Shown here: one piece after another, positions 29,303 to 57,482 of the stretch
Layout: the number at the start of each line of letters is the position of its first letter
How positions within the stretch are numbered: position 1 is the stretch's first letter
Position numbers and translations under genes: made by a program
Assembly: GCA_012295275.1 (NCBI GenBank)
Contig: CM022673.1
Span: 16,988,001 to 17,052,000 of the forward strand
DNA length: 64,000 nucleotides
Direction: 5' to 3'
Origin: Chrysomallon squamiferum
Lineage: Eukaryota > Animalia > Mollusca
Notes under the pieces: model-generated
What the model was told of the DNA's origin: nothing
What the model saw: the letters and a program-made list of their open reading frames with translations, nothing else
Databases searched by the model: none

Positions 29303-29396
29303 ATGTCGACTATTACATATACTAAAGATTTCTTTTTATGGTGCATGTCTGTTATCTATCTGTTTGCATTTTCTTCGTTATATGTGCAGATACCAG
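29303..29396 (+). CDS. LMF2: LMF2 exon 1
   Basis: ATG at 29303; [31 protein letters not shown](G); donor CAG|GTACGT, phase 1. Confidence 0.93.
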
Positions 29397-35300: not shown

Positions 35301-36754
35301 AAATTTAAAAAAATACAGTGGTACCATAACTTATGAATTTAATTTGTTCAGTGGCTGAGCCTGTAACTCAATATTTCGTATCAAATCAAGTTTTCTGACT
35401 GAAATTAATTGAAATACCATTAATCTGTTACTTCTTCTCAGCACTGTCCTTTGCACACACTTTTGTGGAAATGTGACAAAATACTGCACAAAATGCAAGC
35501 ACAACACAACTGAGATGCTTCCACAGTGAGGTACCCACATGAAGTAAATAAATGAGACACTGGAAGCTGGGCAGATGTTGTGTTGTTTGTTGCATCAACT
35601 AGCAGTGGCATATCTGAAGCTTGCTCGTTACTCATATTTTGGCTCACAACTCAAAGCAAAAAATCTGCTCATAAGTTGGAAAACTTATAAGCTGGTGCAC
35701 TCATAAGTCAAGGTATCACTGTATCTGTAATCACTGAACTGTAAGTGATGTTCCTAGAGTTGGGTGATTGTCTGTGGGAAACTTAGGCATCCACAGAACC
35801 AAACAGTCCCTATGTTTTATATAACCCTTAACTGGACAGTTAATCTATTATAGTTTTTTAATATCTCTGTTTTATCATTTGGAAAATAACAAATAATAAC
35901 TAAAATAACATTGTGATGTTATATATTTTATGTTTCTTTCAGCTCTTACATATCACTTTGAATCTCAGGTAAGCTGTTCAATTTTTTTTTTTTTGACTAT
36001 TGACAGGTGTCATTTTATGTTCATGAAATAAAAATTGTTTTGTTTTAGTAGCTGTTATTTCTGATGTCTGTGACTTCAAAACGTGCTGAAATTTTATACA
36101 TTTTATAATTTAAGTTTTTTATATAAAAAAATTCCATTATGTGGACATAATTTTATTTTTCTTATTCTTTGCATAATTAATATTTATATATTCAAAAATA
36201 ACATGAAACATTCAGATTTTAATTGACTTTTCTGATAAAACTGTGTTTTCGATTTCGGGACATTTCAACATCTTTTGTCATTTCTGTGTTTTTCTAACAC
36301 TAAGTTAATTAAAATCTATTTCTCTTTTTTATTGTATTTGAGTTTTTCTTATATTAAATTAAAATCCATTTTCCTCTTCAGCGTATTTGAGTTTTAATAG
36401 GATTCAATTAAGACGTTTCCATTTTTTAGTTTTTTTTTTTTTCTTGCACGAAAGTAATTTAAACCTATTTTTCATTTCAGTACATTTGAATTTTTACAGC
36501 ATGAAACTAAGATGTCTTTACCATTTTGTTTTTTGTAGTATTAGAATTTATCTAATTATAAGCTTTTTTCTGTTTCAGTGTATTCCAACACCTTTAGCCT
36601 GGTACTGGCATCAGAGTCCAGTCTGGTTTTTAAAACTGGCATGTGTTCTGACATACGTTATAGAGATTCCACTAACCTTTCTCTTCTTCATACCAATACG
36701 CTCTCTCAAAATGTTTGCCTTCATCTCTCAGGTAAGATTTGACGCATGCACACA

Positions 36755-36813
<59 letters not shown>

Positions 36814-39800
36814 ATATCTTTGGTTTTATAAGATTCCATAAGAAGGTTTCATGTGCAGGCCATGATTGGTTGATATTTTTAAGCAGGAATCCCATGTTTG
36901 GAATATTCTGTACTGAAGTCACATTTTGTTTGGATATGGATAGTTACTGATTGAAGTCTCAGTGAGTTATCTGTAGAAATTGTATATTATATACACATTC
37001 TATTTGTTTTGCAATTAATACTCAGGAAACCACTAAGCTTTGTGCCAGACTTTGTGACATGACTAGAGTAACAAAACCTTGACATATTTTAACAAATACG
37101 TTAGCACTTGTCAAACATCAGTTACCACCTGCTCACCTGTTTTACATGTGAACCTGTTGACTTTATTTTATGTTTTATGCGAGACTAATGATTGATTATT
37201 AAGGATTATATAATTTACTAGCATAATTTTAAATTAAAAAAATAATTGCTGTTTAAGTTTTTTTCATTTATTTATTTATTTATTTTATATATATTTTTAT
37301 GTTTTAAGTTTTATATTTTTCAACATTCAGTCACATATGAATTCTATTCTTATTAACCAAATGTGATAAGTGCATATCATGCCATATGACTTTAAAATTT
37401 AAATGAAATTTTAAATTAAAAAGACTTAACGATCCCATCATACTACTCAAGATTTAATGTTTTTGTTTTTCCTTTGTAAAACATTTCTTCTTTTTTTAAT
37501 CTAATTATTATTTTGTGTTTAACATACATTTTTTTATAACTTTCTTTTCTTAGAAATGTTAAAATAAAGTGATGTAAATTAGAAGAATCACATGACATAT
37601 CCAATACTTACAAAAAAAAAAAAAAAAAAACCCTCAAATAGTAAGTTGTTTTTCAGCTACAGTTGTTAACAGTATTAATGAACAAAGAGGAAATTGTTTT
37701 CATAAACAAAAAAAAATGTTATTATGTTTGGCAGCAGTATTTGTTTTTAAGATACAAACAGTTCCAGCAGTATTATTTTCCATATAATGCAGTTTATACA
37801 CTATTCAGTCACAGTGTTAAACATACTGATATGTATCATGTATGTAATACAAATACTGACAGTAGAATTTTATATGTATTATTTTCCCCACCGTTAAAAT
37901 AGTAAACTAGATTGCATTTAATTTATTATCATTTTATCTTTTAGAAAAAGGTAAATAATGATAATAATAGATAAAAAAATAATTTATAAAATAATATACA
38001 TTTTAATTTTTATCCTATAAACATACTTTTAGTATTAATGTATGAAATAAACAGAATATTCTTCACCAATCACAGATGGTACAACTGATTCTAGTAGTAA
38101 ATTTATATTTAATTTAAAATTGATATAGATCAGAGTGGATAACAAACAAGGTTAGGTAAATATATTTTGTATGTTTATTAATTTTTAAATTTGGCTGTTC
38201 ACTGACAAGTATTTACTGGTATTTTCAGTTTAATTCTCTTAGAATTTATTTTTCTTTGTCAGTCTTGTAAGTATTCCATGCAAATGTATTCTTATAGAAT
38301 CAATTAGACAAAAGTTGTTGCTTTGTTGTTTAATTAGAAATGATCGAATGACTTAAATACCAGTAATTTAGTTATTTGAATAGCAATAATTCAGTCATTT
38401 GATTGACAGTAATTTCAGCCTTTTAAATTAAAATGATTTAATCTTAATTTTAGTCATTCAGTTACTGGTATTTACATCATAAATAACAGTAATTTAACAA
38501 TTTAAATAATAATAATTTAGTCATTTACATAACAATTTGAAATAATAAAAATTTATTATTTTAAATACCAGTAACTGAATTACTAAATATAAATGCTTTA
38601 GCCATTTAATTGAAATAATTAAATAAATTTGATTTAGCCACTTGATTGAAAGTAATGGTGTTATTTAAATACAAATGACTTTGAGCTGTCTGTGCCTGGT
38701 CTGCTACATGTAGACTCTGTTAGATGAGAACTCACTCTCATATGTCTTCCTGCTGACTCAAACCTGACACATGGAGATGTGGCAACATGAGACAGAAACT
38801 CTGGACTTTTCATTGGAATGTTGAGAGTCCAGTATAGTCCAGGATAGCGAATCAGCATGGAGTTGATTATTTGAATGAATTCTGTGGCAAGCTCCTGTAT
38901 GGAATGAAAGTCAGGACCTCGGACAAACAGTTTTACAGAGTCCACTGTTTTGATCATGAGGACTTTTTCATTGTCTGATTCTGCATATACACAGTCACAC
39001 CAGTCTATTCTCTCTAGAACAAGGTCTTGGATGGAAGAAACCATTTTTTCAAAGAGGCTCTTAGGAAAATGGAAGGGAAAGCTATAAACTACTGAAAGTT
39101 CTTTGTGATGAGACTCAACATTTTCAGTCCACAGTTCTGACAGTTCTGATATATTTCCATCATCCTTGTTGTACCATGGTATGACCATCAGCGGACGTAT
39201 GTATAGTCGACAAGTTGGAACATCTGGCTCTGGAACAGAATAACACAGGTCAAGCAAGGGAAGTAATTCTAACAGATCTTCCAGAGTGTAATTGTCCATG
39301 TTTTGATAAAACCACAGGCAATTGAGAAATGGTCTACAAACTTGTCCTTTCAGCAAAAACATTTTTCTTGCTTCCTCAAATTCCTCTTCACTCAGATTTC
39401 CTTTGCTGCTGAAAATGTTGTTCATGGGTTTCTTCATGAATTCTTTGATGTCATGACGATACAGAGAAGATACTATTTCAACCAGAATCCTTGGCTTATG
39501 GAAAAGAATTTCTGAAAGTCCTGTGACATCAAAATACCACAGAACCTCACCAATATCATGTAGATAGTTGATGCAGTCTTCAAGGTTTTTGTCTTTAACA
39601 TTGTAGTCCTTGCCTATTTCTACAACCTGATCCCAAAGGAGGTAGTTTCCTCTTTGTTGCTTCAATTTTGAACACAGCTTGCCCCAGGCAGCAGGAATCA
39701 CTCGCTGGGCATGAGGAAACAGATTTATATCTATAGCAAGATGCTCCAACTCATCCACAAGCTGCTGGATTCCTTCAAGAGTTTGAGAAGTACTTATTAC

Positions 39801-42800
39801 TGAAATGTTTGGTAATACTTGTACATGACTGGATGAAATTTCTTTCAGTTTATTTCTACGTACTGTGAGCAGTTTGATTGCTGCATTTTCAGCTTCATAA
39901 TGTTCTTTTTCTGTGGCAATTTGTATTTCTGCTAATTCCTTCTCAACCTCTTTGAGTTCATCTGCAACAGTCTTTCTGTACTTAGCCAGATATTTCTGTA
40001 ATAATTCACTGACTTCTTCCACTAGACCTTCTCTGTCATATTCAGACTTGCCTCCTTTTGACTCTGGTATGTCCATCAGATCACACTGAGTAGCTATCAC
40101 TTTGATTATAGCACCAGGAGCATTTGAGTTCAGAATATCTATCCACTGTCCTAAAGCTCTGTGGAAACGACTGGGGGTGAAGGAAGCACCATTGAAAACT
40201 AGTAAAATGAGAGCTTTGGAGTCTAAAAACAAAGGTGTTGTTACATGATAAATTTCAGAACCTCCAAAATCATTTAGCATAAATTCCACATTATTGTCAG
40301 TTTTCCAAGGTCTCTGTCGAAGAACTCTGGTTTTATCTTTTGGTCCTTTGGTCATCTTTGACCGTCTGTAGACTAGAGTGTCAACAAGACAAGTTTTTCC
40401 TGCTTGAGATTCTCCTAAAACCAAAATCTTTTGTCTTTGCAGGTTTTCAGTCTTTATGATGGCAAGCTTTTTAAGATAGTCAAAAATCATTTCCGGTTTT
40501 TCTGTTCTCCAGATCTCAGGAGGTGGTTGTTCCAGTGGGTTTTTGTACAGCCACAGCCCGTACTTCTGTAGTTTCCTATAGCTGTGAGCCACTGTGAGCT
40601 TTGACAGGTTGTACAACTTCATGGGAAGCTGTTTGATGAGATTATTAGTTAGATCCAGTGTCTCCAACTCAGTCAATTCACAGATTTCATTGGGTAAAGA
40701 TGTCAGCTGGTTCTCCTCAAGAATCAGCTTTTTCAATTTGTAAAGTGTCTCAATTTCTTTGGGAATCTGACTGATTCTATTTCTGGACAGATCAAGTTCT
40801 TCCAGATTAAAGAGCAGACCAATAGTGTCAGGAATCATGTCAAAACTGTTGTTGTTAGCTCTTAGGATTTGAAGATTGATTAGACGACCAATCGATGGTG
40901 GAATTTCAGTCATTAAATTTGAGGAGATATCTAAGACTCTCAGATGTTTTAGACCATATAGTGTGTTAGGTAAAGTCTGGAGAAAGTTGTGACACAAATA
41001 GAACTCTAGTAAACCAGTGTTATACAGGTCTGGGACATTGTTTATCATTGTATTCTCTAGGTCCAATACTTCTAAGGCGGGTAACTCAAACACTACAATG
41101 GGAATGTGTTCAGATTTGATCTGCCCTTTCCTCAGCAGATTTTCCATATAATTATCAATGACACCACAAAAGCTCCTATAGTTTATAGCCAGGACTTTGA
41201 GATTTGGAATTTCAGGTAGAGTTTCTGGCAGACTCTCAACTGCATTACCCCACAGGAGTATTTCCTCTAACTCCTGACAGTAAGCTATCTCTGGAGGAAG
41301 AGAGGAAATGTTTGTCTGTTGCAGATTCACTTTTCTTAAAGCAGTAAGGTTTCCAATGTCTGGTACAAGGATGTTGATTTTGTTTCGACTGATATCCAGT
41401 GTCTTGAGACTGGTCAATTTCCAGACAACTGGAGGAATGAAAGGCATGTTGCACTCAGATATTTTCAGATGCTGCAGACCTGTCAACATTTCCATGTCTG
41501 CTGGGAGACCTCCATAATCCTGTGAGTGGCTACATCTAAGTCCATTTCTGCTGAGATCCAGTTTAGTGAGAGCGGTCAGCTTCTTTATGTCTGGAGGTAT
41601 TGATCGAAGATTATTAGAGGCCAGGATTAGTTCACCAATATCCTTGGCTGGGAAATGAAAAAATAAAGCCACATTTAGTCTTTGAAATATAACAGTGTAT
41701 TATTTTCCTACACAAGTAATGGAAAAACTTATATCAAAATATTGTAAATTTCTAAATATTTATGGTCAATTCATAACTCATCTGAATTATATATTTAACT
41801 ATTATTTGTTTAGCAGAGAAAACTGTTATTGATAGTTATAACAGATCTGCTAACAAAATATCAACATATTATCAACAAATTCGATTTACCTGTAAACAGA
41901 GATGAAGGAATTCCTGTCATTCCTTGTCCAGACATGTCAACAATCTTCAAACCATCATCAGTCAGCTCTGCTTGATTTGGAGTTTGCCGTTTCTGTGCTG
42001 ATATTCGGCCATCTCTGGAAGTTTTGGGTGGGGACTGAGAGGTTTGGCGGCCATCTTTATTTTTTTTCTGAGCCGATCTTGATCTTGCTGAACCTTTACC
42101 TCTTACAGGTGACTTTGAGGGTGATTTAGAGGGTGATTGGCTCTTGCTTCTGGAGGTAGGCCTCTCAGGGGTTCCTCTCTTGGACCCAGCACTCCGCTGT
42201 TTAGGTGAGGCTGATTTTCGCATTGGAGATGTGCTGCTTTTCTGAGAGTCTGGGTTGGGGGATTGCTTCTTGCCAGTTAGAACTTGTGGAGGACTTCCTT
42301 CAGACATATCTGTCTCTCTTTTCTCAGTAGTAGACCTGGAAGAAAATGGAAAAGGATGTTAAAGGAAATAATTTTGTTTATCTTAGATGTTTTATTACAG
42401 GTATTATTTATTTATAAATGATGCTAAGATTGTGTTAAAATGGTTAAATAGCAAAATTGAGATGGATCACAGTTTCAGATTTTTGCAGTAACTATCAATA
42501 TACCATATGTACTTGCAAACACAAATACAATTATATGTTTGTTATTAACAGTTTCAATTTAAAACAATGATACTTATTTCTAGAAAGGTTACTTAACTGA
42601 ATACCTTCAGATATATTATTTTCACACTGTTAATGATAGTAGTCCTTTTAGCTAAAAAATATGACTATAAACAATAATGTAATTTATCCTGAATCTGAGA
42701 CACTGTTAAATTCTCTTCACTTCAGTAGTTAATTAAGTGTATTTTATTTTATGAGACATTGCACCAAGTAGTAATAAATAGTTTATTGTCATGTTAATAA

Positions 42801-45800
42801 CAGTGTTGATGTAATCAGCTCATTTACTGGCTCTGCTGTTGTATACAAAATGAGTCTATTGTCTGTGTTTGTAAAGGTGTGAATAACAAGTATGGCTGAC
42901 AATTTGGTTCTGTGTTATGCATGAGCAAACACAATAATTTCAAAACCTGGTATATGTTTTAAGTACTGTTAACATTGAGGTAACCTGACAAGAAATAAAA
43001 TATATTAGTAAAATAATAATATCAACAGTAATTGTAAACAGAATGACAATAACATTCATAAATATTGAAATAAAAAAGTATAAAATATATATATAATACA
43101 TAATACTCTCAGACATATGCAGACAAATATATAGAAATAAATATACAAGTATGTGAACACATGCACCTACTTCCACCTAGAGGTATATAAACACAGGTAC
43201 ACATGCATGCAGATAATACTTTAACCATACATATGAAGAAAAACAGGTTAATTTGGTAAAGGACACACACATTAAATAAGAAAAGACTAATTTAAAGGTA
43301 GAATATTATCTTAGTATTTCAAAAAATAGTAGAACAATACAAATGTTAATAAAAATTTATCTGTACTGTTCAAAGTACTTACCTTCTTGTTTTACGCACC
43401 AAAGACCCGTATGTTCAGAAGTTGACTAAATACACGTATCATATTCCACATTAAATAGTTCCATTAGCTTTTCATATTTCCCATGCTACCGGTAATACAT
43501 AAGTTTTGTACATTAGCACTGACAGTTTCAAATCTAGCTCTGTAATTGTTTACTTTTCAAACTTAGGCTTGTTGACTGTTAAGTTGTGACCAAGACAACA
43601 ACAAAGATACCAGCTCCACTAAAGCTTGCAAGTCTGAGAGCTTTGTATTGGCTAAGAGGACTTAAGTCTTGCCTTTGTAACAAAATGTTAACTGGGATTT
43701 GCTTCGTGAAAGAAGCTATGGTAGATGTTAATCCTCTGGGGTTAAACAGATGAATAGTATACCAAGTCATGATTGGGAAGTGTTTATCAGAGAACTTAAT
43801 AATTGTTAATGGATTGAAGTTCATTTATGAATAGTTTTGTTAATATTTAAATCTTGTTTTGATTTTGTATTAAAGTTATATATTTAAAAAGAAAAAAATT
43901 AATTTTAATTTTTAATGTTGATTAATAATCTGGACAGAAGAATACTTAGAATTATTTTACAAATTAATAATAATATTTAAAGAAATATCATTAAGAAACA
44001 TGCTTTATTAATTAAGTTGTTTTGTTGTTTTTTGTGAGGTTTTTTTAATATATTTATTTTATATGTGTATGTGCATTCAAAGTATACAACAAGCAGTTAA
44101 TTTATTATAAATTGTCTGATTTGTTGTTAATAAAAACAAACTAATATCTCTGCAGTAAACAAAAGACCAGTCACTGTTAGATTTAGTTACATTGTTGACA
44201 ATAAGTAAGTATATTTTCAGTTATATTTTGTTCAGAATTTTCAAAACATTTCAGATTAATATGTTCAGCCACATGAATTTAACATTCACAGGTCTTGAAT
44301 GTTTTCTTTCTGAAAAAGAATGGTGCAGATCATAAATCTTTTGCCAAGAATGCGGTGGGATTATGTTTAGTGTGGACTTGAATATGCATGGAGTAATTTA
44401 GCACTGTTAAAAAAAAAATTAAAAAATTGTTTGAATCATAAATCAGTCTGCAGTGTATTGCAAAATTAGGTTCAGTATGTAAGGAGTTAATTTTGTATTT
44501 TTATAAAGTTGTGTGTAAACTGGACTACACCATATAACTGAATTATGATGCAATTCAGTCTAATATTCTTGGATCCCTAGATGTTTCTATAAACAAAAAT
44601 GTGAAAGTGTGCACAGTATATTGTAATTTAGTCTATGTATATGCAGAGTATTTTGTTCAGAGAGGTTACGTGGTGAATAGTTATTACATTTGATTTCACC
44701 TCTATTGATAAATAATATGACCTATCTAAAAATAGTTTTAATTTGTATGTTCCTTTGGTTTAATGTCTCTTTTTTTCTTTCACATTAGCAGATAACAGTA
44801 TAGTTATTCTTTAATTCAGTTTCCTTGGTTTTATCCAAGTAATGTAAATGTGCATGGACAAAAACACAGACACAGATAGTCAGACAGACAATCAGACATA
44901 CCCACACATGCATGCACATAATGCATAAACTTGCATATACATACACACACATTCAAACACACATAGACACACAAAGACATGCCGTTATTGTAACACTAAC
45001 ACATACACCAGTTATATCAAAGGTGTTTAGTATTATCTGGAGTGGTAGTTTGGGTTATCCCAGTATCTAAGGTAAACAGAATGTGTGTCTACATGCAGAC
45101 AGATTATAGCTACACACAGAATGGTTTCAGGCTTGAGTAGATTACTATAATCTTATAACATGTTAGACGAGTACTGACTTGTATTTACACGATCTCTCAT
45201 AATAACTGTATTTTACTACCTGTATTAAATAGTCACACTTAGCTTGTAAAATTACCCCTCAGTGCTGGATTATTGAACAATGTGGTATGTGATGCCCTGT
45301 TTTGTTTTGTGGTCCTTTGTGGCTGATTAATCTTTAAATCATCAATTTACCATTAAAATGTTCTGCACTGACAAATGTTTTTGCAGTAATGTTCTGATGT
45401 AATAACATTTTTATAACACTAGTCACATATACAAAAAAATAAAAAATAAAGAAAATAAAAAGAATAAATAAATGTAAAAATATAAATAAATAACACAAAA
45501 AATGAATAAATAAATTTAGAAAAAGTTAAGAGTGTAAAGATCTCGGGGACCAAGTACACATATGTTAATAATATCTCTGTAGGTCTTTGTCAGCTAATCT
45601 TGTTTTCGTTGTTGTCAGAGGCAATATAGTGAGTAGTGGATTAATATAATACACTTCCAATATGACCACATTAGTGTGTGTTGTGAAAAAAAAATTATTT
45701 ATTGATTATGATTTAATAAGTTTTTTTATTCACACTTGATAGGTTGGCCAGGGTCTTATGTCTATTGATCTTTCTCAGTCAGTTTATAAAGAATCAAAGT

Positions 45801-46597
45801 TTAATCCTGGGTGTATATATTGATTTGTTGTATGTCTCTCCATGTCATTGTAGTCCCATGGGTGTTTGATTTGAACAAGACCCCACCCCACCCATAATAA
45901 ATAATAAATAATAAAAATAAATATATTAACTAAAATTTCCTTTTTTATATTTTTATGTTTTAGTATGATTTATTTATTTATTTATTTATTTAGGATCACC
46001 ATATTCTTGCATTCCATGCTAATCCATTGAGTTTACACTGTGATGCAATAAATTATTTAAGGAACTTCTTGGTTTTATTTTAATACTGAATATTAACTCT
46101 GGAAAGGACTGATATCAAATCATAACCTTTCTTTTAACATTTAACATACCAGAAATGTTGATATAATAATGAAATTTGAAATCCTGAGACTATCATCTTC
46201 TGAATTTGATATTAAAAACCTTCTTCTTTCTAAATTTTATTTTCATTGTCTTGTAGATGTTGTTAATTTACAGAATATTTTCACTCTAGTGATTAAAATA
46301 GTTTCTTTAAAATATTGAAAATAATCACAACCCTCCTGTCCATAAAACTCCCCAAACAAAATGCAGTGAAAAAGACAAGTGTAAATTTTTATTGTGTTAT
46401 ATATTATTATTTTTTTCTTTCAGGTTTTACTTCAAGTTCTGATTCTTGTGACAGGAAACTACAACTTCTTCAATCTCCTCACCATTGTGTTGTGTTTCTC
46501 TCTCCTCGATGACAGCTTCTTTTTCAAATCTACATCGGGTAAAGGTACTTTATTTATTTAATTATTGTTGTTTATTTTATATATGTATATACTAGTG

Positions 46598-46641
<44 letters not shown>

Positions 46642-49600
46642 ATGTATTTTTTATGTTTTAAAATTTAGTTAACTTTCAAGGAAATAAATTTCAAATTAAA
46701 AAAAAAAATAAAAACAGGAAAGAATTATGTTATCATTAATACTTAAAATCAACATTTGCATTCCATTTGCACAAACTTGTGATCATATTTCCATTTTCAT
46801 TCCTTTGATTATTTGATTTGTTTATTACTAACTACATGCTTCTATTTTCTGTGTATATATGTCTAATCAGTTTAGATGAAATTCTAGGGCATTTCATTGT
46901 TATTTTTGTTTTTTCACCAGGTGGAAAAAAGGATTGGTCCATCATCAAATTCCTTGCTGAACTGATTGCCCCAGTGGTCATTCTTGGTTACATTAGTTAT
47001 GGAACAGTGAAATACTTCAAACTTCATCTAAATCCAGATTACACTGTCAAGTCCAGTGTAGGTCAGTACTAGACAGTTAGTGATATAGAAGATGTGAGGT
47101 TTGTTATAGGAAATGTTGATTTTATTAATTATTTTGGTCACACACTTATTTATCAATATAGGTCAACATAGCCATAAGTTTCTGAAGTCAAGATAGATCA
47201 ACAGTAGCTATTGAAGGATACATTGGTCATACAGCTGTGTATTCAGTATATTTCTGTAACAGTCATTGTTGGTTACATTATTCACTTGGCCATTGTTCAA
47301 CATAGGTCAACATTAGTAATTGTTGGATATGTTGGTCATCAATCTCTGAAGTCAAGATAGTAGTTATTGAAGGATGCATTGAGCATACAGCTATGAAGTC
47401 ACTGATAGTCATTGTTAGATACAGTGGTCACACATTGCAACGTCAAGATAGATCATTGATAGTCATTGTTAGATACACTGGTCACACATTATGAAGTCAA
47501 GATAGATGACTGATAGTCATTGTTAGATACACTGGTCACACATTGAAGTCAAGATATGTCACTGATAGTCATTGTTAGATATAGTGGTCACACATTATAG
47601 AAGTCAAGATAGATGACTGATAGTCATTGTTAGATACACTGGTCACACATTGCGACGTCAAGATAGATCACTGATAGTCATTGTTAGATACACTGGTCAC
47701 ACATTGTGAAGATAAAAATGGTCACTGATTGCCATTAGTTGATACTTTGGTCCACAAATTTTGTTTTTTTATTTTGTTTTATTACAGAAATGTTACTTTT
47801 GTATTTCAGGTTTCACAGAATTAGAGTTTACTCGGTGGTTACAGTTTATTGTTCCTGTCACCATTCTGATGGGAATTGTCACTCTGGGCTATGAAATAGT
47901 CATGGCTATTCTCAGGTATTTCCCATTATATGTGATCCTCTAAATCAGGTGTGGGCAAACTTTTTAAAACAGGGGCCATATGGATCTTATAGAAAAAGCA
48001 TGAGGGCCAGAATATAAAATGAGAACAAAAAAGATTTCAAAATGTGTATTTTTATGTAAAAAGTAAATTCACTTTTAACAAATGTTAGAAGAGTTAATGA
48101 GATTGTGTTGCATACCATGAAGCAGCAATTCAGTGTCAGGCTTAATTGATGTGGTGCACAAGCAAAGAACGTCATTTAGGTGGTGGTCAGAGAGTTATGA
48201 ATGAAGGCGATACTTTGTATATTGCATTTTTGAGAATAGTTGTTCACAGCAAAATGTGATTCCGAACATAGCTGCAATGTGCTGAATATGTTTAATAAAT
48301 TGTGGAAATTTACCAGATGGAAGGATGACATCATGTAAGAAGGAAAGGGGAAAAGAAGTGCACAACTTAGCTTTTAATTCAACATTGCATCGCATATCTA
48401 CCAACTCCATCAGCAAGGAAGCTGAAGAATCATCCACTGGGATTTCAAAAGGTGCACTGAACAATTTGAAATATGCAGATAGTGGTCGAATACCTTCATT
48501 ACAACTGACATGACATCAATGAGATTTGCAGACTTGCCACATACGGATTCTTGCTGGATGATGCAGTGCAGTTTATGGATGGTCTGATTGTGTCCAAGAG
48601 CCTCACAAAGCGCAAAGAAGCTGCACCTTTATTCTCTCCTGTCACCATCACTTGTTACACTTGCATGACGGGAGAGATCAAGGTAGTGATGTTCCACACA
48701 CTGAAATAAGGCATTGAACATCTCTTTTCCACTGTGGTGCCATGTAATGGAACAATCTCAACGAACTCTTCAGGTACCTTGAGGGCAGAAATAACACCAC
48801 ATATGAAAACAGCCATTTGGGCTGTTTCTTTCATACCAGTGCTATAGTCAAGAGCAAGAGTGAAGGTGACAAAGGTCGAGCACTTACTCTTTAATAAGTC
48901 TTGCTTACTGTCTGACATCTCCTCAACGCAACACTCATATTCTCCATGACCAAACTTTCTGGGCAGATATAATTCATTAGAGTCATGAGACATTCCTTGA
49001 TAAAATGTCCATCAGAAAATAGCTTCATCCGTTGAGCAAGGAGTAGTGAAACTTCGTAACTGGTGCGTGTCACTTTTTCATCTGAGATATCTGTTTACAG
49101 AACATCAAAGTGCCCTTTTCAAGATGGACTGACAGTTTTGCGATGGCATCCTTTGTCTCAGAAGCAGACATTGAAACATGACTGACTGCTGGAAACTGAC
49201 AGAGAGTAAAAAGCAAAAATGCAAAAACCAGTTTGGTTCATGACAGCAAGAAGTTAGCATGGTTCAATTTGCCTGCTTGTGTAACTGAGACAGGATTGAA
49301 ATAATGATCATTATAGTTTGCATATTTTGAGCAGTCATTCAAAATTCAGATGCAGGCATTACTGATTTGATGAGCACCTTCAAGAAGCCTTAAATTTAAA
49401 ACTTGTGTGCGACTTGAGTAAAAAAAATTGCTCTGTCAACTGACTTTATTTCATTGACTTTTATTTTGCTGTCTCGCAGGCTGGATGGCAATGCTAATTG
49501 TGAACAGTTTGGCGGGCCAGACAGTAAACCTTTGCAGGCCAGAGTTTGCCTGCCCCTGCTCTAAATCTACTGTTGTAGTAAATACACTGCATGAATTTGG

Positions 49601-50108
49601 TAACTGAATAAGACATAAAACTTTATTTGTAAATTAGTGAGTAATAATTGCCTGATAAGAAAGTCCTGTTTAAGTAAATTCCTGAGATCTACTGATTTTC
49701 ATTTTCTAAAACTGCTACAAAGTGGATAGTTTAAAATGTAGATTATTGTTTAATGCTGATAGCTTACTGTTTAGATTACTGATAAGTTTAAGATGTAGAT
49801 TATTAGTAAGTGTTGTATTTTCAGGTCGTGCCTGGAAGAACAGAGCACAGTGAAGAAGGGTCTGGCTGTGTTTCAGTGTGTTCTCTTTGGTTCTCTTGCA
49901 GCTGGCATGTTTGCTATTAGCCTGGTGAGTAGCCACTTTACATGCACACAGACACATACAATTATAATCACACACAACCATTTGTATATACAGATACCTG
50001 TTGCATATACCTACACCATAACACAGACACATATAGATACTGATTTATCCTTTATATTACAGACAGACAGATATTTATACAAATGTAGATACATGTATGC
50101 ACGTGCAT

Positions 50109-50173
<65 letters not shown>

Positions 50174-53100
50174 TACATGCACTCATAGGCACACACAGAT
50201 ATATGAATACTGATGTACACTTTACATTTATAGACATACAGATATTCATGCAAACATATAAAGATGAACATGCACAGTCATATCACATCACAGTTTATTG
50301 GAACTTTTGTATATTTATGACAAAGAAAACAAAGTAACAAAAAGAAAACCCTATTACCCTTCCTTACCTAAAAGAAACTGAAAAAATACCTCCCTACAAA
50401 ATCCCCAAAATCAGCATGTACATATAAAAAAATGTTTTTGTTTTTGGCACACATTGTTTGTCCATCCCAGATAGTCTGAATCTTGTGTTTTTCACATCTT
50501 TATCATCAGTGCAATAACACCATTGTACATAAACCCTACCAGTCTTCTGTACTTTGGGTATTAGATATATGTAAAACTGATACATAGAAACCTTCACTGG
50601 TAAATTTGCTATGCTCTGATTTTAGGGTAGTTGTAGGTCCCTATTCATAAAACCTACCAGATGCTGTTGTACACTGTTAAACAAAACATGACTGATTTGA
50701 TTTGTTAAGTTATCCTAGTTAGTTATTCGGCCCAAATATATCTGTTGACCAATATTGTTTATTTTGTAAATAATATGTTGTTAAACACAGCCGGTCCAGA
50801 TACATCTATCAACAGTTATTCATTACCCACTTATTATCTACACTATAAACTCCTATAAACTGTAATACTGACACCTAAAGGTATTTGTTTGAGGTGTCTT
50901 TAAAGTATTCTAACAAATTATTAATTGACCCTGCTCAAATACTATATACATTATAAGTAATATTGACACCTGAATGTATTTTTTTGAGGTGTCATTAAAC
51001 AAGGTGTTCATTCATTTGTAGGTACCCTACACAGTAATTAATAAACACTACCAGAAACGGCTGTCTCCCACTATTCGTCAGTTCCATGTCAAGACCCGGC
51101 CTTTTCATCTCACAAGTGCTTATGGTCTCTTTAGAAGGTACCTCAAGTGCCAGACCAGTGCAGTAAGGCTAGGAAATGGTCCTTTCTTTCTTCTTTTAAA
51201 AAAAAAAAAAAATAAAAATATAAAATAAAAAAAAAAAAAATAAAATCAATATTTCTTTATTTCCAAAAAAAAAAAAATTTAAACTCGACAACTGTTTATA
51301 TATTTAATATGAAATTGTTTGAATTTAGAACAGGGTGAATATTTTTAACACTTCATTTTGATTCATTTATTTTATTCATTAATAAAAATAAATGTGTTGA
51401 AGTCATGTGTATATCATGAAATATGTACGAATGTTTTTTTTCTCTTGCATTAAACTTTTTTAGTAAAACAAAAAAAAATTAAAAATAAATTGTAGAAATA
51501 AATTTAGAATAATGAAACAAAACTAAAAAGATAATAGAGATAATGAAGTAACATGCATAGATACAATAAGACAAATGACCTTGCAAGTAATTAATTTAGC
51601 TAAGTAAAATCAGTGCTAAAAACAGAATTAGCAAAAAAAAAAAAAAAAAAAATAATAATAATAAAAAAAAAAAGAAATAAGAAGGTATTTACATTTTAAA
51701 ATAATGTAATATGCAATTGCACATCAGCAGTAATAAAAAAAGAAACAAAGAACCATTTCCAGTGTCTTTCTGCAGACAGAAAGCATGGCACGTTTAGTAA
51801 ATAATTGTGTTAGACGTTTGTTTATTGAATGTTGTTTATTAATACCTACTGAATCTTTAGTACAAGACACAGGACACACCAGTCCACAGATACCCCTGTA
51901 TCCTTCCTCCTGTAAAACCACACCCACATCCGTAATGGAGCATCAAAGTAAAAATCTGTTTTTGCCATAAGTACTCAGATTTTGTGTTTTCATTGGTAAT
52001 AATCATTGGTTTTAACAGTTTTATTATTATTTTTTTTTTATCCTTGTGAACAAGGTCATGTTGCCTGGATTTTGGTGTTCCGTCTAATACAGTTACGGTG
52101 TTAAGTGTTTTGATTTGTGTATGCTACATGTGTAATTTGCAGGTTCCCCATACAGTCATAGATATGAAAACCCAAGGAACAGTTTGGCCCAGCGTGCGAT
52201 CGTGGCACGAGAAATTTGAACCATTCTTGATCACAAACTCCTATGGCTTGTTTAGATCGTAAGACAATTTGTTTTTGGCATGCTTGGTGTGTGTGTGCAG
52301 ATGTAGATTAGAACACTGCAGAAATAATTAGTAAATGTATTTTCATGTAATAACAGATTGAAGGGCTTTAACAGTAGGAATTTCAGTGCTTTGATAGATT
52401 CAGCCCGGAAATAAAATCATGAAAATAGTTAACACAGATAGTGTGTGGGTATAATTAATAACACTTAGTATTTGGATAAAGTAATGTAAATTAATAATAT
52501 TTTGCATGATGAATAAAATGAATTTACTATGAGTATGTGTGTGTCTGTGTCTATATATAAACCAAGCATTAGTTATAGAAATGATAATTTATAGTTACAA
52601 GTATTTAATGAAAATATTTTTTTAATTTTATTTTATGTATAGCAAAATAACATTACTAAATTCTTTGCATTTTATTAAGAGTATTTTTAAAATGTAACTT
52701 TACTAACAAGATAATAAAAAAAACTACTTTTACAATTATTTGCACCATATTTATCAAATATTTCTAGCTCTCTAATGCTGCTCACACTTTTTTTTTTTTT
52801 TTAATTTAATTTAATTTAATTTAATTTAATTTAATTTTTATTTTATTTATTTTTATTTATTTAATTATTTTATTTATTTATTTATTTTATTATTATTTTA
52901 TATTTTATTTTTTTGTGACTACAAATTAAAATTTCTAATCCAATTTTGTGTCAGGCTGTGGTGGATTATCTCCCTTACTTATCTGTGGTTGGTGTCTATA
53001 GTAATACATGCACAAAATGTTTTTAAGCCTCTGTTTATAGTTTTAATGTTTTGTTCTTTAACTTTTCTTTTTTTTATTACTAACATTTTGTATTTTGTTT

Positions 53101-54314
53101 GTTTGTTTATTCATTTTGAATAATCTTACTGACAGTAACTTGAAAGATGTAAAATAAAGGTAATGAAAAGAAATAATAATAATAATTCCAGGCCTTCTGA
53201 TTATTGTCTTTATTTATTTTTTTTATTATTTAACAAAAGTATAATAAATAAATAAATAAATAAATAAATAAAAGTAATAAAAAAATAAAGTAAATTTTTA
53301 CAACTTGAGTTTTAAATAATTGTTTGCCTTGACAAATATTAACTTGTTCAATATAAATTATGTTTTTGCTTATACTGTGTTTAATAATAGCTGATTGTTT
53401 GTGTGGTCTGTACTCATGGATCTATTTAAATAAAAATAATTTTAAATATTTAATTAGCATTACATTAAAAACATTTAATTGTTTTATTATTATTATTTCT
53501 AACTGACCTTTCTTTGAAATAATTTTTATTTCTATGTTTATAATTACAAAATCTTTATACTCTTTTAATACACTCAGTTTCTCTGTCTGTCCATTTCTTT
53601 ATATGCGTAGCCACCATACAAATGTACCATTATTATTGTAATAATTATTGATTTTATTATCTGTACATGATTATTTTGTAAAGTTATTATTATAAAATAA
53701 TTAACTTTTTTATATATCAATTGTTAATTATTATATAGCCTATAGCTTTACATAAGTGTACTGCTCATGTTGTAATAAGCATGAACTATCTGAATTGTTT
53801 TAATTATAGAATGACTGGTGTCGGAGGTCGTCCTGAGGTCATCATTGAAGGCAGCTACCACAGTGACAATGGGTTGGAAGGAGTATGAATTTATCTACAA
53901 ACCAGGAAATGTGTCCAGACGGCTACCAATTCTTAGTGAGTTTCTGTCACCATACAGGATTTCTAGAAATTAAAATGACATGAGTTTAATAATGAAAAAA
54001 AAGAAGGGCGAAATCTTCAGTGTACCAATATATAAATATTTTTGAATTGAAGTGAATGATAAATGTTAATACCAACAGCCTTTTAGTCTGATAATTTAAA
54101 TATTATTTGTTTTGTTTTGCTGATTAATATGTTTGTATGATGTTTGTTTCATTAGTAATTTTTGTTTTATCTAATTGATATTTTATTTAAATTTATAATT
54201 TATTTGTTTCATTCTACTTAATTTTTTATTTTCTCATAAATTTATTTATGTATTTCTTTTCTTTTCTTTTCTGTTATTTTTGGTTTATTTCATTCTGCTT
54301 TATTTTATTTTATT

Positions 54315-54389
<75 letters not shown>

Positions 54390-55800
54390 TTGTGTGACAG
54401 TTCCACACCAGCCACGCTTGGACTGGCAGATGTGGTTTGCGGCACTTGGTAATTATCAGCACAATCCATGGTTGCTGAACCTCGTCTACCGGCTTCTCAC
54501 CAATGAGAAAGATGTTCTGGAGCTGATAGAGAAAAACCCATTCCCTGACAAACCACCCAAGTACATCCGCGCAACCCTCTACCACTACCACTACACCAAC
54601 GCTGATCCCACTAGTAACAGGTAGTACAGTTAAATACTGAGAACTAGTAAATGTTTGAAAAATAACAGATAAATGTTCAGAAATTAATATATTAAAAATA
54701 ACAGTGAAATATTCAGAAAATAATTAATGTATGTGTGTGTGTATGTATAAATGATGAAGTATGGAGGTTTTTTCTTTTTTTTTAATTAAATGTTTGCTAT
54801 GTCCAGTTAGATACTGAACATTTTTTTATTACAATGACAGAAATACTTTTTCAGTTTTTTTGTTAACCTAAGATCAAGTCAAAAATATAGTCACATATTG
54901 TGAAGTATTTCTCTAGCCACCAGTTTATGGGTTGTTTATATTTGTATGTAATCTTATCACATGACTATTGTACTGTATGAGATTTAGAATTGTTAATTAT
55001 TTTTGTTTTTCTCGGCAGATACTCAAAGACAAAATGGTGGATACGCAAAAAGAAAGCTGACTACTTACCAGCGTTAGACCTAGAAGAAGAAGGTTTAGGA
55101 CAATATATTAAATCTTCACACATGACAAGGGTATGAAACATCTTTTGTTTACTTTTTTGTTTCTGTGGGTTTTGTTATAAACTGAAATTTTTTTATTTTA
55201 CTTTTACTGTAATAAGAAATATAACTATAGTGGTAGTAATTGTAGTAGTAATAATAACAATATAAATCATTATTGATAAATGCAAGGTGAGTGATCTCCC
55301 TTATTCAGCAAATGGTTGTTAAATGCAATGTGGATGTTCTCCCTTACTTGGGAGATGATAGATTTGTGGATTATTATTTGATAATAATTGACAAAATAAA
55401 AGAACAAAAAAATTTAATATTTATTATTATTCTGGTCAATTTTAAATTTTCACTTGCTTCATCACAAAAGAGGTGAAAATATTATAAAATATAATTTCTT
55501 CTTTTATTAAATTAAAGAAGACTGTTATTCATTTATTGAAATAAAAATAATGTGTTCAGTAACAAGTTTTTTTATTTCTTAAGATATAATTAAATAAAAT
55601 AAGATAATAAAATTTCAAAGTTGTTGCCTTTCTGTCCGTCTGAGTCACTTAAAAAAGTGATCAGTGTTAATTTGTGATTTCAGAGACCAAAAAAGAAAGC
55701 AACTACGATGATAGGGAAAGCAGTGCAGTGGCTACGGCATCAGATTGGACAGCCTGAGGGTTTCAAGTTTATCATGTCAATCTTTGCCTCGGGGGTCTAG
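29303..55800 (+). CDS. LMF2: Lipase maturation factor 2 gene, whole span, 16 coding exons (exon 12 present as two alternatives), about 640-650 aa
   Basis: Spliced translation gives [124 protein letters not shown], all collinear with LMF2 as I recall it; all introns GT-AG with matching phases except one internal +1 frameshift near 53871. Confidence 0.96.
29457..30643. mobile_element. Unclassified non-autonomous DNA transposon, about 1.19 kb, in LMF2 intron 1
   Basis: Terminal TAGGTATGTG / CACATACCTA inverted repeat flanked by direct repeat AACAGTA on both sides; CpG-rich interior, no transposase ORF. Confidence 0.7.
32838..32888 (+). CDS. LMF2: LMF2 exon 2
   Basis: ttcag| (G)[16 protein letters not shown] |gtaagt; 51 nt, phase 1-1. 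Confidence 0.92.
33301..33503 (+). CDS. LMF2: LMF2 exon 3
   Basis: tgtag| (S)[24 protein letters not shown]...[11 protein letters not shown] |gttaat; phase 1-0. Confidence 0.92.
34468..34496 (+). CDS. LMF2: LMF2 exon 4 (29 nt)
   Basis: ttcag| VGQTFMWFQ(W) |gtaaac; phase 0-2. Confidence 0.92.
34885..35090 (+). CDS. LMF2: LMF2 exon 5
   Basis: cccag| [10 protein letters not shown]...[26 protein letters not shown] |gtaaca; phase 2-1. Confidence 0.95.
35316..35721. mobile_element. Tc1/mariner (Tigger/pogo-like) MITE, 406 bp
   Basis: TA on both sides; TIRs CAGTGGTACCATAACTTATGA vs CAGTGATACCTTGACTTATGA (18/21). Confidence 0.82.
35943..35968 (+). CDS. LMF2: LMF2 exon 6 (26 nt)
   Basis: ttcag| (A)LTYHFESQ |gtaagc; phase 1-0. 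Confidence 0.92.
36579..36731 (+). CDS. LMF2: LMF2 exon 7
   Basis: ttcag| [17 protein letters not shown]...AFISQ |gtaaga; 153 nt, phase 0-0. Confidence 0.95.
38350..38600. repeat. Degenerate ~25-bp tandem repeat just 3' of the ROCO stop codon
   Basis: Recurring AATAACAGTAATTTAGTCATTT-like unit. Confidence 0.55.
38661..41647 (-). CDS. MFHAS1/MASL1-like ROCO protein (LRR-Roc-COR, no kinase), large terminal exon
   Basis: Open 2987-nt exon after acceptor ttcccag|; about 15 LxxLxLxxNxL repeats, NPLEQPP cap, P-loop GESQAGKT (40392-40415), G3 NDFGG, G4 ATQCD, COR-like [12 protein letters not shown] and [12 protein letters not shown]; stop TAA 38661-38663. Confidence 0.92.
41890..42307 (-). CDS. 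MFHAS1-like ROCO protein, first coding exon (basic S/K/R/P-rich N-terminus and start of LRRs)
   Basis: ATG 42307; ends [18 protein letters not shown] with donor CAG|GTAAAT, phase 1, joining in frame (G+CC=Ala) to the 41647 exon; total 1134 aa; acceptor ttcttccag| puts exon start at 42335. Confidence 0.88.
43383..43500 (-). other. Probable non-coding first exon (5' UTR) of the nested ROCO gene; 5' limit uncertain
   Basis: Perfect donor AAG|GTAAGT at 43383/43382 on -, in-frame TGA and no ATG upstream, small cluster of CpGs in otherwise CpG-poor DNA. Confidence 0.55.
46424..46544 (+). CDS. LMF2: LMF2 exon 8
   Basis: ttcag| [40 protein letters not shown] |gtactt; a second in-phase donor gives an end at 46538. 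Confidence 0.92.
46921..47061 (+). CDS. LMF2: LMF2 exon 9
   Basis: accag| [46 protein letters not shown] |gtcagt; phase 1-1. Confidence 0.9.
47404..47726. repeat. ~54-bp minisatellite, 6 copies, with degenerate copies back to about 47130
   Basis: GATAGTCATTGTTAGATACACTGGTCACACATT...GTCAAGATAGAT starts at 47404, 47458, 47512, 47564, 47619, 47673. Confidence 0.92.
47810..47915 (+). CDS. LMF2: LMF2 exon 10
   Basis: ttcag| (G)[34 protein letters not shown](R) |gtattt; phase 1-2. Confidence 0.9.
47946..49558 (-). mobile_element. Decayed, internally deleted hAT transposon (Buster/Charlie/SPIN, GTF2IRD2-like transposase)
   Basis: TIRs CAGGTGTGGGCAAACT / AGTTTGCCTGCCCCTG (13/16), perfect 8-bp TSD CTCTAAAT; broken ORFs [37 protein letters not shown] and [16 protein letters not shown] (hAT dimerisation motif). 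Confidence 0.92.
49825..49924 (+). CDS. LMF2: LMF2 exon 11
   Basis: ttcag| [33 protein letters not shown] |gtgagt; phase 2-0. Confidence 0.9.
50110..50169. repeat. (CA)n microsatellite
   Basis: Read directly. Confidence 0.95.
51022..51137 (+). CDS. LMF2: LMF2 exon 12a (alternative)
   Basis: tgtag| [38 protein letters not shown](R) |gtacct; 116 nt, phase 0-2. Confidence 0.88.
52143..52258 (+). CDS. LMF2: LMF2 exon 12b (alternative)
   Basis: tgcag| [38 protein letters not shown](S) |gtaaga; 116 nt, phase 0-2. Confidence 0.88.
53810..53935 (+). CDS. LMF2: LMF2 exon 13 (contains apparent +1 frameshift)
   Basis: tatag| [21 protein letters not shown] then, after removing one base in GGGTT (53871-53875), [20 protein letters not shown] |gtgagt. 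Confidence 0.9.
54316..54389. repeat. (TCTA)n microsatellite abutting the LMF2 exon 14 acceptor
   Basis: Read directly. Confidence 0.95.
54401..54620 (+). CDS. LMF2: LMF2 exon 14
   Basis: gacag| (I)[23 protein letters not shown]...[22 protein letters not shown](R) |gtagta; phase 1-2. Confidence 0.95.
55019..55130 (+). CDS. LMF2: LMF2 exon 15
   Basis: ggcag| [37 protein letters not shown] |gtatga; phase 2-0. Confidence 0.88.
55684..55800 (+). CDS. LMF2: LMF2 exon 16 (terminal coding exon)
   Basis: ttcag| [38 protein letters not shown] (TAG 55798-55800); true stop may be 55830-55832 if the G5 run is miscalled. Confidence 0.8.
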   Translation, partial: RPKKKATTMIGKAVQWLRHQIGQPEGFKFIMSIFASGV

Positions 55801-57482
55801 CAGTCAATGTGTTAAATTTGTACTTTTTTTAGAAGTTGCAGGATTTAAAAATTCTTGTGTGAATTTTTACAGATAATAGGTGCTAATAATAGGTTTTGGG
55901 ATTTCATTTGAGTGCAGAATTGATAAAGCTATGTTTGTGTTTGTTAGGAAATGTGATTTCATAATGTGTTTTTTACTATTATCATTAATGTTATTTTTTA
56001 AAGCATATCACCAAATCTTTCAGTTATTAATTATACAAATAAATATGTTTAATTATTCTAATTTTAATCCATTATTTAGCACTGTTTTTTGTTGCTTTTC
56101 ATTTTAATGTTTTATTTTGAATGTTTTTCATTACCAGCTAAATTTGCGTGAGAATGTACTTGTGTATTGCATGGTTTTTACTGCCAACACATTTTATTTG
56201 CTACATTGTTTAATGTATCACTGTTTTTATTTTTGTCCACCCTGCCATTTTGAAAGAGCAATTCATTCACAGGCATAATATAATCTATTACAATTCTACA
56301 TTTGTGCTTTTGAGCAATTGATTTTACATTCCCTTTTTACTTTTATTTATTTTTATTTTTTTAAATAACTGTCTGTAGCAAAGTCATGATTGTTTTCATA
56401 AAGTCTCAAGCATTAAATAATGTCATTTCAGTTTGCTACTTTGTTAATGTTCGTTTTTTAAACTGTTTAAATTTTTATTATTTTGCGTTACTTTTTGCAT
56501 GTTGTTTTCTCTGTTTACTGTTATGTCTACATATCTGATGTAGTTTTGAGATGTGAGAGCCTGAAGATCTTTTGCAGTAGATCTAGTTTTTCTTTATCTT
56601 TTCACTTTACAATTTTTCAAATATTTTAGTTTAAATAGATTAGTGAAATCCATTTGTTGTATATGTTTAAATATGTTAGTAGTTCATTATTATTATTATT
56701 ATTATTTTAATCTATGAAAGAACTTCGGGCTATCCATATTTTAGGTTAGTAATAGATTTGTCATTTATCATGTGTCATGTGTATTGTGTGTTTTGCAGAA
56801 CACACCTTTGGACACATTCTGTTAAAAGAACTCAATCTGTTTACAAATCTTTTGTTAATGCATTTGAGCCAGGCCAGAGCATCCTGTTTAAGTTCTGACA
56901 AAATTATTCACATTTACAGATATTGCAATAAATGATGTGTTTGTATAAAGTGAAACTAGCACAAATAGATTCACATTTATAAAACACCTTTGATATCTGC
57001 CCTTCATGAGTTGGGAACTAAACATTTTTAATAAAATATTTCTTAAGTCTTCTTATAAACAATTCTGGATGTAAGTTTATAAGTCTGAGAGCAATCTATA
57101 TGTAATACCTTGTTGATAATATTATCATGTATAAAAGTCAATAAAATTGATAACAATAAAGTCTTGGTTTGGCTATAAGAAGTAAGAAAAGGGAATGCCA
57201 AGAAGAACAGATTTTAAGACTTGACATTTATCTGTGTGGTGTAGCACTTGAACAAATGGAGAACCTAAACTCAAAATATTGCTGAATCCATGTTTAAAAA
57301 TCATATTTATTGGTAAAAGTCATTTGAAATTAAATTTTAAGTTGTAGTTAATATTTAAAACACAAAGTGTTAAAAGCTAAGTATGTTTTGTGCAGTTTGA
57401 TTTTCACTTAAACATTGTGTCTTCTTCAAATCAGACCAAAGATGATTAGGTAGAGCTGGTTCTGCTTAAAATGTATAGAGAA

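Follow-up and report, generated by a model that had tools for sequence, protein, structure and literature searches.

The window analysed here, a stretch of 64,000 nucleotides of the Chrysomallon squamiferum genome (contig CM022673.1), contains on its forward strand a gene for a lipase maturation factor, LMF2, the main features of which are listed in the Table. The gene model was obtained by mapping the nearest named proteins, those of Gigantopelta aegis (85% over exon 14), onto the window, and the assignment to LMF2 rather than LMF1 follows the source names of the best hits. The numbering of exons 12a and 12b in the preliminary description fits this model, in which a small exon 6 occupies positions 35943-35968. 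PF06762 and PF25179, which are lipase maturation factor domains, were found in the Gigantopelta orthologues and assigned to the individual exons of the gene in the window. An extra base at 53868 shifts the frame of exon 13; since this base is absent from all four sequencing runs considered below, the frameshift is an assembly error. A second coding indel error probably lies near 55790, as judged from a different frame that continues the Gigantopelta C-terminus. Intron 7 of LMF2 harbours a nested antisense Roco-type gene (LRR, Roc, COR-A; 1012-aa open frame) at 38661-41699 (-), which probably also includes 41861-42358 (-), and intron 10 contains, at 48050-49500, a repeated element that is matched by divergent contigs from several runs and is likely a transposon remnant.

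Table. Features of the LMF2 locus. Positions are counted from the first letter of the window.
Feature	Position	Strand	Remarks
Whole LMF2 coding span	29303..55832	+	about 16 exon positions; end assumes a second likely indel near 55790
Exon 11, constitutive	49825..49924	+	phase 0 at its end; covers most of the final TM helix ahead of the luminal domain
Two 43-nt direct repeats, 88% alike	50862..50999	+	each with a short inverted repeat
Exon 12a, class A	51022..51137	+	donor AAG|GTACCT; joints in X6, X7, X8
Intron between 12a and 12b	51138..52142	+	1005 nt, GT-AG
Exon 12b, class B	52143..52258	+	donor ATC|GTAAGA; joints in all 4 runs
Exon 13, constitutive	53810..53935	+	starts in phase 2; one extra base at 53868 in the assembly

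A check of the sequence showed that exons 12a and 12b are, as first described, each 116 nt long, stop-free and of phase 0-2, and that both are preceded by AG and followed by GT. The reported 18 identical residues were also recovered, but they have to be set against the 38 fully encoded residues rather than 39; residue 39 is a split codon that reads R in 12a and S in 12b. Throughout this study, exon classes are labelled by this split last residue (R = A, non-R = B), and residues 1-38 were scored. The counts of charged residues given previously (8 K/R and no D/E in 12a, 4 K/R and 3 D/E in 12b) agree with our recount. At the nucleotide level, 60 of 116 positions are identical, including 12 of the 38 third positions, and the 60-nt flanks of the two exons (22/60 and 16/60 identical) are unrelated. 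Third positions and flanks are therefore at about background level, which indicates an old duplication kept at the protein level, in line with the initial proposal. That both copies have been retained, as was also proposed, is borne out by the orthologous isoform pairs found across molluscs.

The use of these exons in transcripts was followed in contigs from four runs (X6, X7, X8 and X9) of two studies, two of which are recorded as RNA; the other two are guessed to be DNA, yet carry spliced joints. Exact GT..AG joints were found at 49924-51022, 51137-53810, 49924-52143 and 52258-53810. Exon 12a was joined to both exon 11 and exon 13 in three of the four runs (X6, X7 and X8), and exon 12b in all four, X9 containing only the 12b form, which is carried by a single 3671-nt contig. 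The postulated mutually exclusive use is supported by RNA-derived contigs, which join exon 11 to either 12a or 12b, and each of these to exon 13. Neither a 12a-12b joint (51137-52143) nor an 11-13 joint (49924-53810) was present among the 15 of 32 joints listed, all from contigs, which drop rare variants. The short side of each joint in X6, X7 and X8 measured 27-32 letters, as is expected where an assembly graph forks, but near or under the 31-letter bridging bar. Contig depths for 12a/12b were 30/45, 13/11, 15/38 and 0/45, which are not expression values. In addition, unspliced contigs connect intron sequence with the start of each of the two exons, and one amino-acid-changing variant of 12a was observed in one X8 contig.

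As had been pointed out, inclusion of both exons or of neither shifts the reading frame, and we located the resulting stops at 52159 (both in) and 53834 (both out), which precede the last junction by 556 and 432 nt, respectively. By established rules, premature stops at such distances invite nonsense-mediated decay, and this applies to both forms. We lean towards the view that nonsense-mediated decay would eliminate transcripts with both exons or with neither, and that the choice of exon would be set by splicing signals; the reading frame together with this decay appears to be the only safeguard evident from the sequence. Steric hindrance does not fit the length of the intervening intron (1005 nt), with branch-like motifs at -30 and -56 from the 12b acceptor and the nearest upstream AG at -39. 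Incompatibility of U2 and U12 sites does not fit either, since the four introns are all of the GT-AG type and none of their donors conforms to the U12 consensus. Docking-selector duplexes did not clearly stand out, the best cross-intron pairings reaching -21 to -27 kcal/mol as compared to -20 to -27 for shuffled sequences (3 shuffles per comparison), and Rfam gave no match within 49800-54000. The 43-nt element that is duplicated just upstream of 12a is a candidate splicing repressor. Its two repeats have a z-value of -2.66, with 2 of 200 shuffles being equally good, and the second repeat overlaps the branch-like motif nearest to 12a (-56).

Isoform pairs that differ in the exon-12 segment were found in public annotations of 19 other taxa, which include gastropods, bivalves, a chiton, cephalopods, Lingula and a nemertean. 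Of 30 protein clusters examined, many of which were picked because they were named as isoforms, 17 contain forms that differ in this segment, with the substitutions limited to it; such a pair was seen in none of the six named non-lophotrochozoan clusters. The comparison of pairs covered 20 taxa including the window (8 gastropods, 7 bivalves, a chiton, 2 cephalopods, Lingula and Tubulanus), the Tegillarca pair consisting of two gene models, one of them run together. Three more Mytilus species, Octopus bimaculoides (redundant), a third cephalopod exon and the single-form taxa were left out. A single form is annotated in Haliotis (3 species), Dreissena, the venerids, the single-member Argonauta and Owenia clusters and two further clusters, one of which is not scorable, where absence from the annotation does not equal absence from the genome. 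A database search with exon 12a alone gave no match, the query being too short.

Several of these taxa show peculiarities of their own. Octopus and the Sepia cluster each have three exon-12 variants, the third of which (P0045, P0152 and P0180) changes the near-invariant YGLFR to YGSL(E/Q)R, and the cephalopod B exon also has a form with a 13-residue extension. The single forms of Haliotis (P0021, P0166 and P0167) and P0027 combine a B-like body with R39, an outgroup-like combination, which may reflect either loss of 12a or an annotation gap. Among the annelids (P0061, P0011 and P0017), the exon of Owenia is A-like and ends in R, and that of two siboglinids ends in M, a hint that both exon classes may be present in annelids as well. 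In Lingula (P0144, P0038 and P0142) the forms differ in a second segment of constant length, which has 16 substitutions in residues 199-248 and is skipped in one form; this segment is a probable second duplicated exon, and its counterpart in the window, an exon near 36580-36732, is present in one copy.

The two classes differ at a few defined positions. Position 26 is acidic (D/E) in 19 of 20 B exons and in none of 20 A exons, while H29 is present in 17 and Q11 in 16 of the 20 A exons. Furthermore, A is more basic than B in 19 of 20 pairs, with one tie, the mean net charges being +5.0 for A and +1.45 for B. D26 occurs in 9 and R39 in 12 of the 14 outgroup proteins, and in Haliotis E26 is combined with R39. 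It would thus appear that the usual single-exon state, an acidic residue 26 together with R39, has been split, such that A kept R39 and lost the acid, and B kept the acidic residue and lost R39. The R-to-S change that turns YGLFRRMTG into YGLFRSMTG was correctly noted before. It is not a decay of the family motif: residue 39 is S also in Clytia and Trichoplax, V in 21 of 25 bacterial LMFs, and non-R in every B exon. By the genetic code, R39 requires the exon to end in G, and S, T, V or M requires it to end in C or T. Since residue 39 thereby determines the two final exon bases at the donor, it may serve as a splicing signal. Across the LMF family, the middle of the segment is poorly conserved, so that much of the divergence between A and B may be neutral.

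For structural analysis, the Gigantopelta A and B isoforms were used as stand-ins for those of the window. Their predicted models had pLDDT values of 92.4 (A) and 91.5 (B) and showed essentially the same secondary structure. In these predictions exon 12 (residues 410-448) covers the end of TM helix 384-415, helices 417-421 and 425-437, and a linker into the beta domain, and PF25179 begins within this span, at residue 439. In LMF1 the corresponding domain lies in the lumen (PMC11526315). The top 15 solved-structure matches of the LMF2 models were all vitamin K-dependent carboxylase (GGCX), with a Foldseek E of 3e-4. GGCX was the top fold with Z 14.7 (rmsd 6.7, 354 aligned) as compared to 6.5 for the next family, and a wide structure search gave Z 11.4 versus 7.3; these scores are only modestly above the noise level for a largely helical protein. 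Profile comparisons linked LMF to bacterial HTTM proteins (94.5%) and HTTM to GGCX-like proteins (98.6%), the direct LMF-GGCX match being 0.3%. K182 is invariant in 72 of 72 rows and aligns with the motif lysine that is K218 in human GGCX, where it is described as the catalytic base (PMC12647623, PMC12589487). The same two reports place Y395, M401 and M402, residues involved in binding glutamate and vitamin K, in the linker after the last TM helix of GGCX. By the predicted models, the tail of exon 12 takes the same place in the chain as this active-site linker and likely borders a carboxylase-like pocket.

A profile alignment of the C-terminal half, linker against HTTM/GGCX, was non-significant (probability under 1%) and placed YGLF opposite the HTTM W-x-M-F motif, and the Y-to-M spacing suggests a different register. 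The register of the linker being ambiguous, we therefore assigned no residue-level GGCX equivalents in exon 12. F and Q stand opposite the Glu-binding N159 and H160 in the LMF-GGCX alignment, which is also non-significant. With E up to 1, a Pfam scan of the Gigantopelta orthologues matched the two LMF families and no other, PF05090 and PF22777 included. PDB sequence searches with LMF2 or its profile found no relative, and the only lead in the ESM Atlas, an HTTM domain protein at 0.79, was below the chance bar. As judged from the models and profiles, LMF2 shares the GGCX/HTTM fold, but it is not filed as a carboxylase proper. We also observed that a DCC1-like thiol-disulfide domain is frequently fused to bacterial LMF proteins as well as to bacterial HTTM proteins (P0062-P0102), which is consistent with a shared redox role.

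We consider it quite probable that the tandem pair is spliced one exon at a time, giving LMF2 isoforms of equal length that differ in 39 residues only. This segment, for which a membrane-proximal helix and a linker are predicted, likely borders the conserved carboxylase-like pocket and likely tunes what LMF2 binds or acts on. That the division of R39 and acidic 26 between A and B changes the charge beside this pocket with functional effect is put forward tentatively, our doubts slightly outweighing our belief. A rather unlikely alternative, in line with the client-facing surface of the preliminary description, is that the pair, equally real and old, alters a luminal surface that binds partners or clients, and not a catalytic or cofactor pocket. 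This would suit the finding that the C-terminal tail of LMF1 is luminal and needed for lipase maturation (PMC11526315), as well as the nature of the largest class difference, which is the above-mentioned charge on helix and loop. However, the conserved exon end corresponds in the models to the linker that lines the active site of the top structural match, and the available part of the review cited names clients only for LMF1.

It is also conceivable, albeit unlikely, that the two copies are functionally near-equivalent and have been kept by regulatory subfunctionalisation, each exon serving other tissues or conditions, with the last residue reflecting the donor-site sequence and not protein function. 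Being a split codon, residue 39 indeed tracks the exon-end base in its choice of R versus S/T/V/M, the predicted A and B folds are alike, and the single form in Haliotis, Dreissena and the venerid clusters means that one copy may be dispensable. What this does not account for is the behaviour of positions 11, 26 and 29: they are internal to the exon and keep their A- or B-specific residues from one mollusc class to another, within a stretch that otherwise evolves fast.

Regarding the age of the duplication, exons paired like with like (A-A, B-B) in 171 of 190 species pairs, where random flips reached a maximum of 135 in 1000, in 147 of 153 mollusc pairs and in all 56 gastropod x bivalve pairs (49/56 without columns 26 and 29). 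The partner from the same species was the nearest exon in 0 of 40 cases. Because the species are not independent, the pair counts show retention and not repeated origin. Since all 56 gastropod-bivalve pairings are like with like, the duplication likely predates the split of these two classes, which is dated to the Cambrian. A single duplication before this split, possibly even earlier, is very probable on these sequence comparisons. A tree of the exons, built on 38 columns, placed 17 of the 20 A exons in one weakly supported group (85/56) and the B exons scattered nearer the outgroups; no single branch set either class apart (5 changes for A and 8 for B). AU tests rejected no topology (all A together, p 0.243; window A and B as sisters, p 0.108; gastropod-only duplication, p 0.06).

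This last result leaves room for independent duplications in several lophotrochozoan lineages that converged on A-like and B-like exons, an improbable scenario for which the third copy in cephalopods and the exons of Lingula, which cannot be oriented as A/B (sum -21), may also be quoted; in the coq-2 paper, mrp-1 is given as an example that arose repeatedly in these phyla (PMC7434440). Against it stand the full concordance of the gastropod-bivalve pairings, the fact that an exon's own partner was never its nearest relative, and the shared A-then-B order in the window and in the run-together models of Biomphalaria and Tegillarca, so that separate duplications are plausible mainly for Lingula and Tubulanus. 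The idea that either 12a or 12b is an artefact of the assembly, an allele or a dead exon, which could draw on the at least one (probably two) coding indel errors of the assembly, the lack of 12a in X9 and its variant in X8, is largely refuted by the splicing of both exons in three runs from two studies, by the unspliced contigs that connect each exon with intron sequence, and by the separate Gigantopelta orthologues, each of which matches its own window exon best (74% and 71%).

To date, LMF2 has no established biochemical function in the literature examined. A two-state exon preserved in several mollusc classes, with residue changes that are reciprocal between its forms, marks a site of functional importance and provides ready-made variants for its study. 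The modelled likeness to GGCX, together with the invariant lysine at the catalytic position, suggests that LMFs may have enzymatic activity instead of acting as plain chaperones, a point of relevance to human LMF1 disease. A much bolder proposal, which we rate as a long shot, is that LMF2 would be a quinone-using enzyme of the GGCX/HTTM fold, in which a lophotrochozoan 12a/12b switch of Cambrian age remodels the pocket wall, possibly in connection with hypoxia and the coq-2 switch between ubiquinone and rhodoquinone. If this were true, the third cephalopod exon with its altered YGLF would represent a further state, and the system would be a natural structure-function probe for an orphan family of ER proteins. 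[quoted passage not shown]

Both splice forms are already present in automated annotation as RefSeq LMF2-like isoforms X1 and X2 (e.g. XP_041367322/3, XP_050408217/8 and XP_013397010/12), which are unlabelled as a switch and without a statement of orthology, A being X1 in some species and X2 in others. No paper on an LMF2 exon switch or an LMF-GGCX link was found in targeted literature searches, and genome-wide exon lists in supplements could hold the pair. The pair is real and old, and the switch is apparently undescribed. As to the protein, LMF2 resembles GGCX and HTTM proteins (PDB 9bvq and others; PMC12647623, PMC12589487) in its fold, in a small-Gly-x-x-Lys motif with an invariant lysine, and in the linker from the last TM helix into the luminal beta domain. 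It differs from GGCX in that identity is about 10% with an rmsd near 7 A, that there is no HTTM or VKGC Pfam match, and that the Glu-binding N159/H160 are apparently not kept, the alignment being non-significant.

As to the exons, the LMF2 pair agrees with the descriptions available of tandem duplicated exon substitutions and mutually exclusive exons (PMC9741552, PMC8373072): its members are homologous, of the same length and phase, used one at a time and ancient, and would fine-tune one region. Compared to known mutually exclusive exons, the LMF2 pair is restricted to lophotrochozoans in the clusters examined. The closest parallels come from two other genes. Exons 6a/6e of coq-2 (PMC7434440) are likewise used in a mutually exclusive way, in a membrane enzyme that molluscs and annelids possess, and differ between classes at a few residues close to the core; unlike the LMF2 pair, they are reported to represent a proven ubiquinone/rhodoquinone substrate switch and to occur also in nematodes and flatworms. 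The duplicated exon 10 of the oyster alternative oxidase (PMC5589949) also gives isoforms of the same size, one more conserved and one derived, but is described as terminal and stress-induced, whereas exon 12 of LMF2 is internal and shared across classes. Ancient mutually exclusive duplicated exons are a known class, for which coq-2 and alternative oxidase provide the mollusc precedents.
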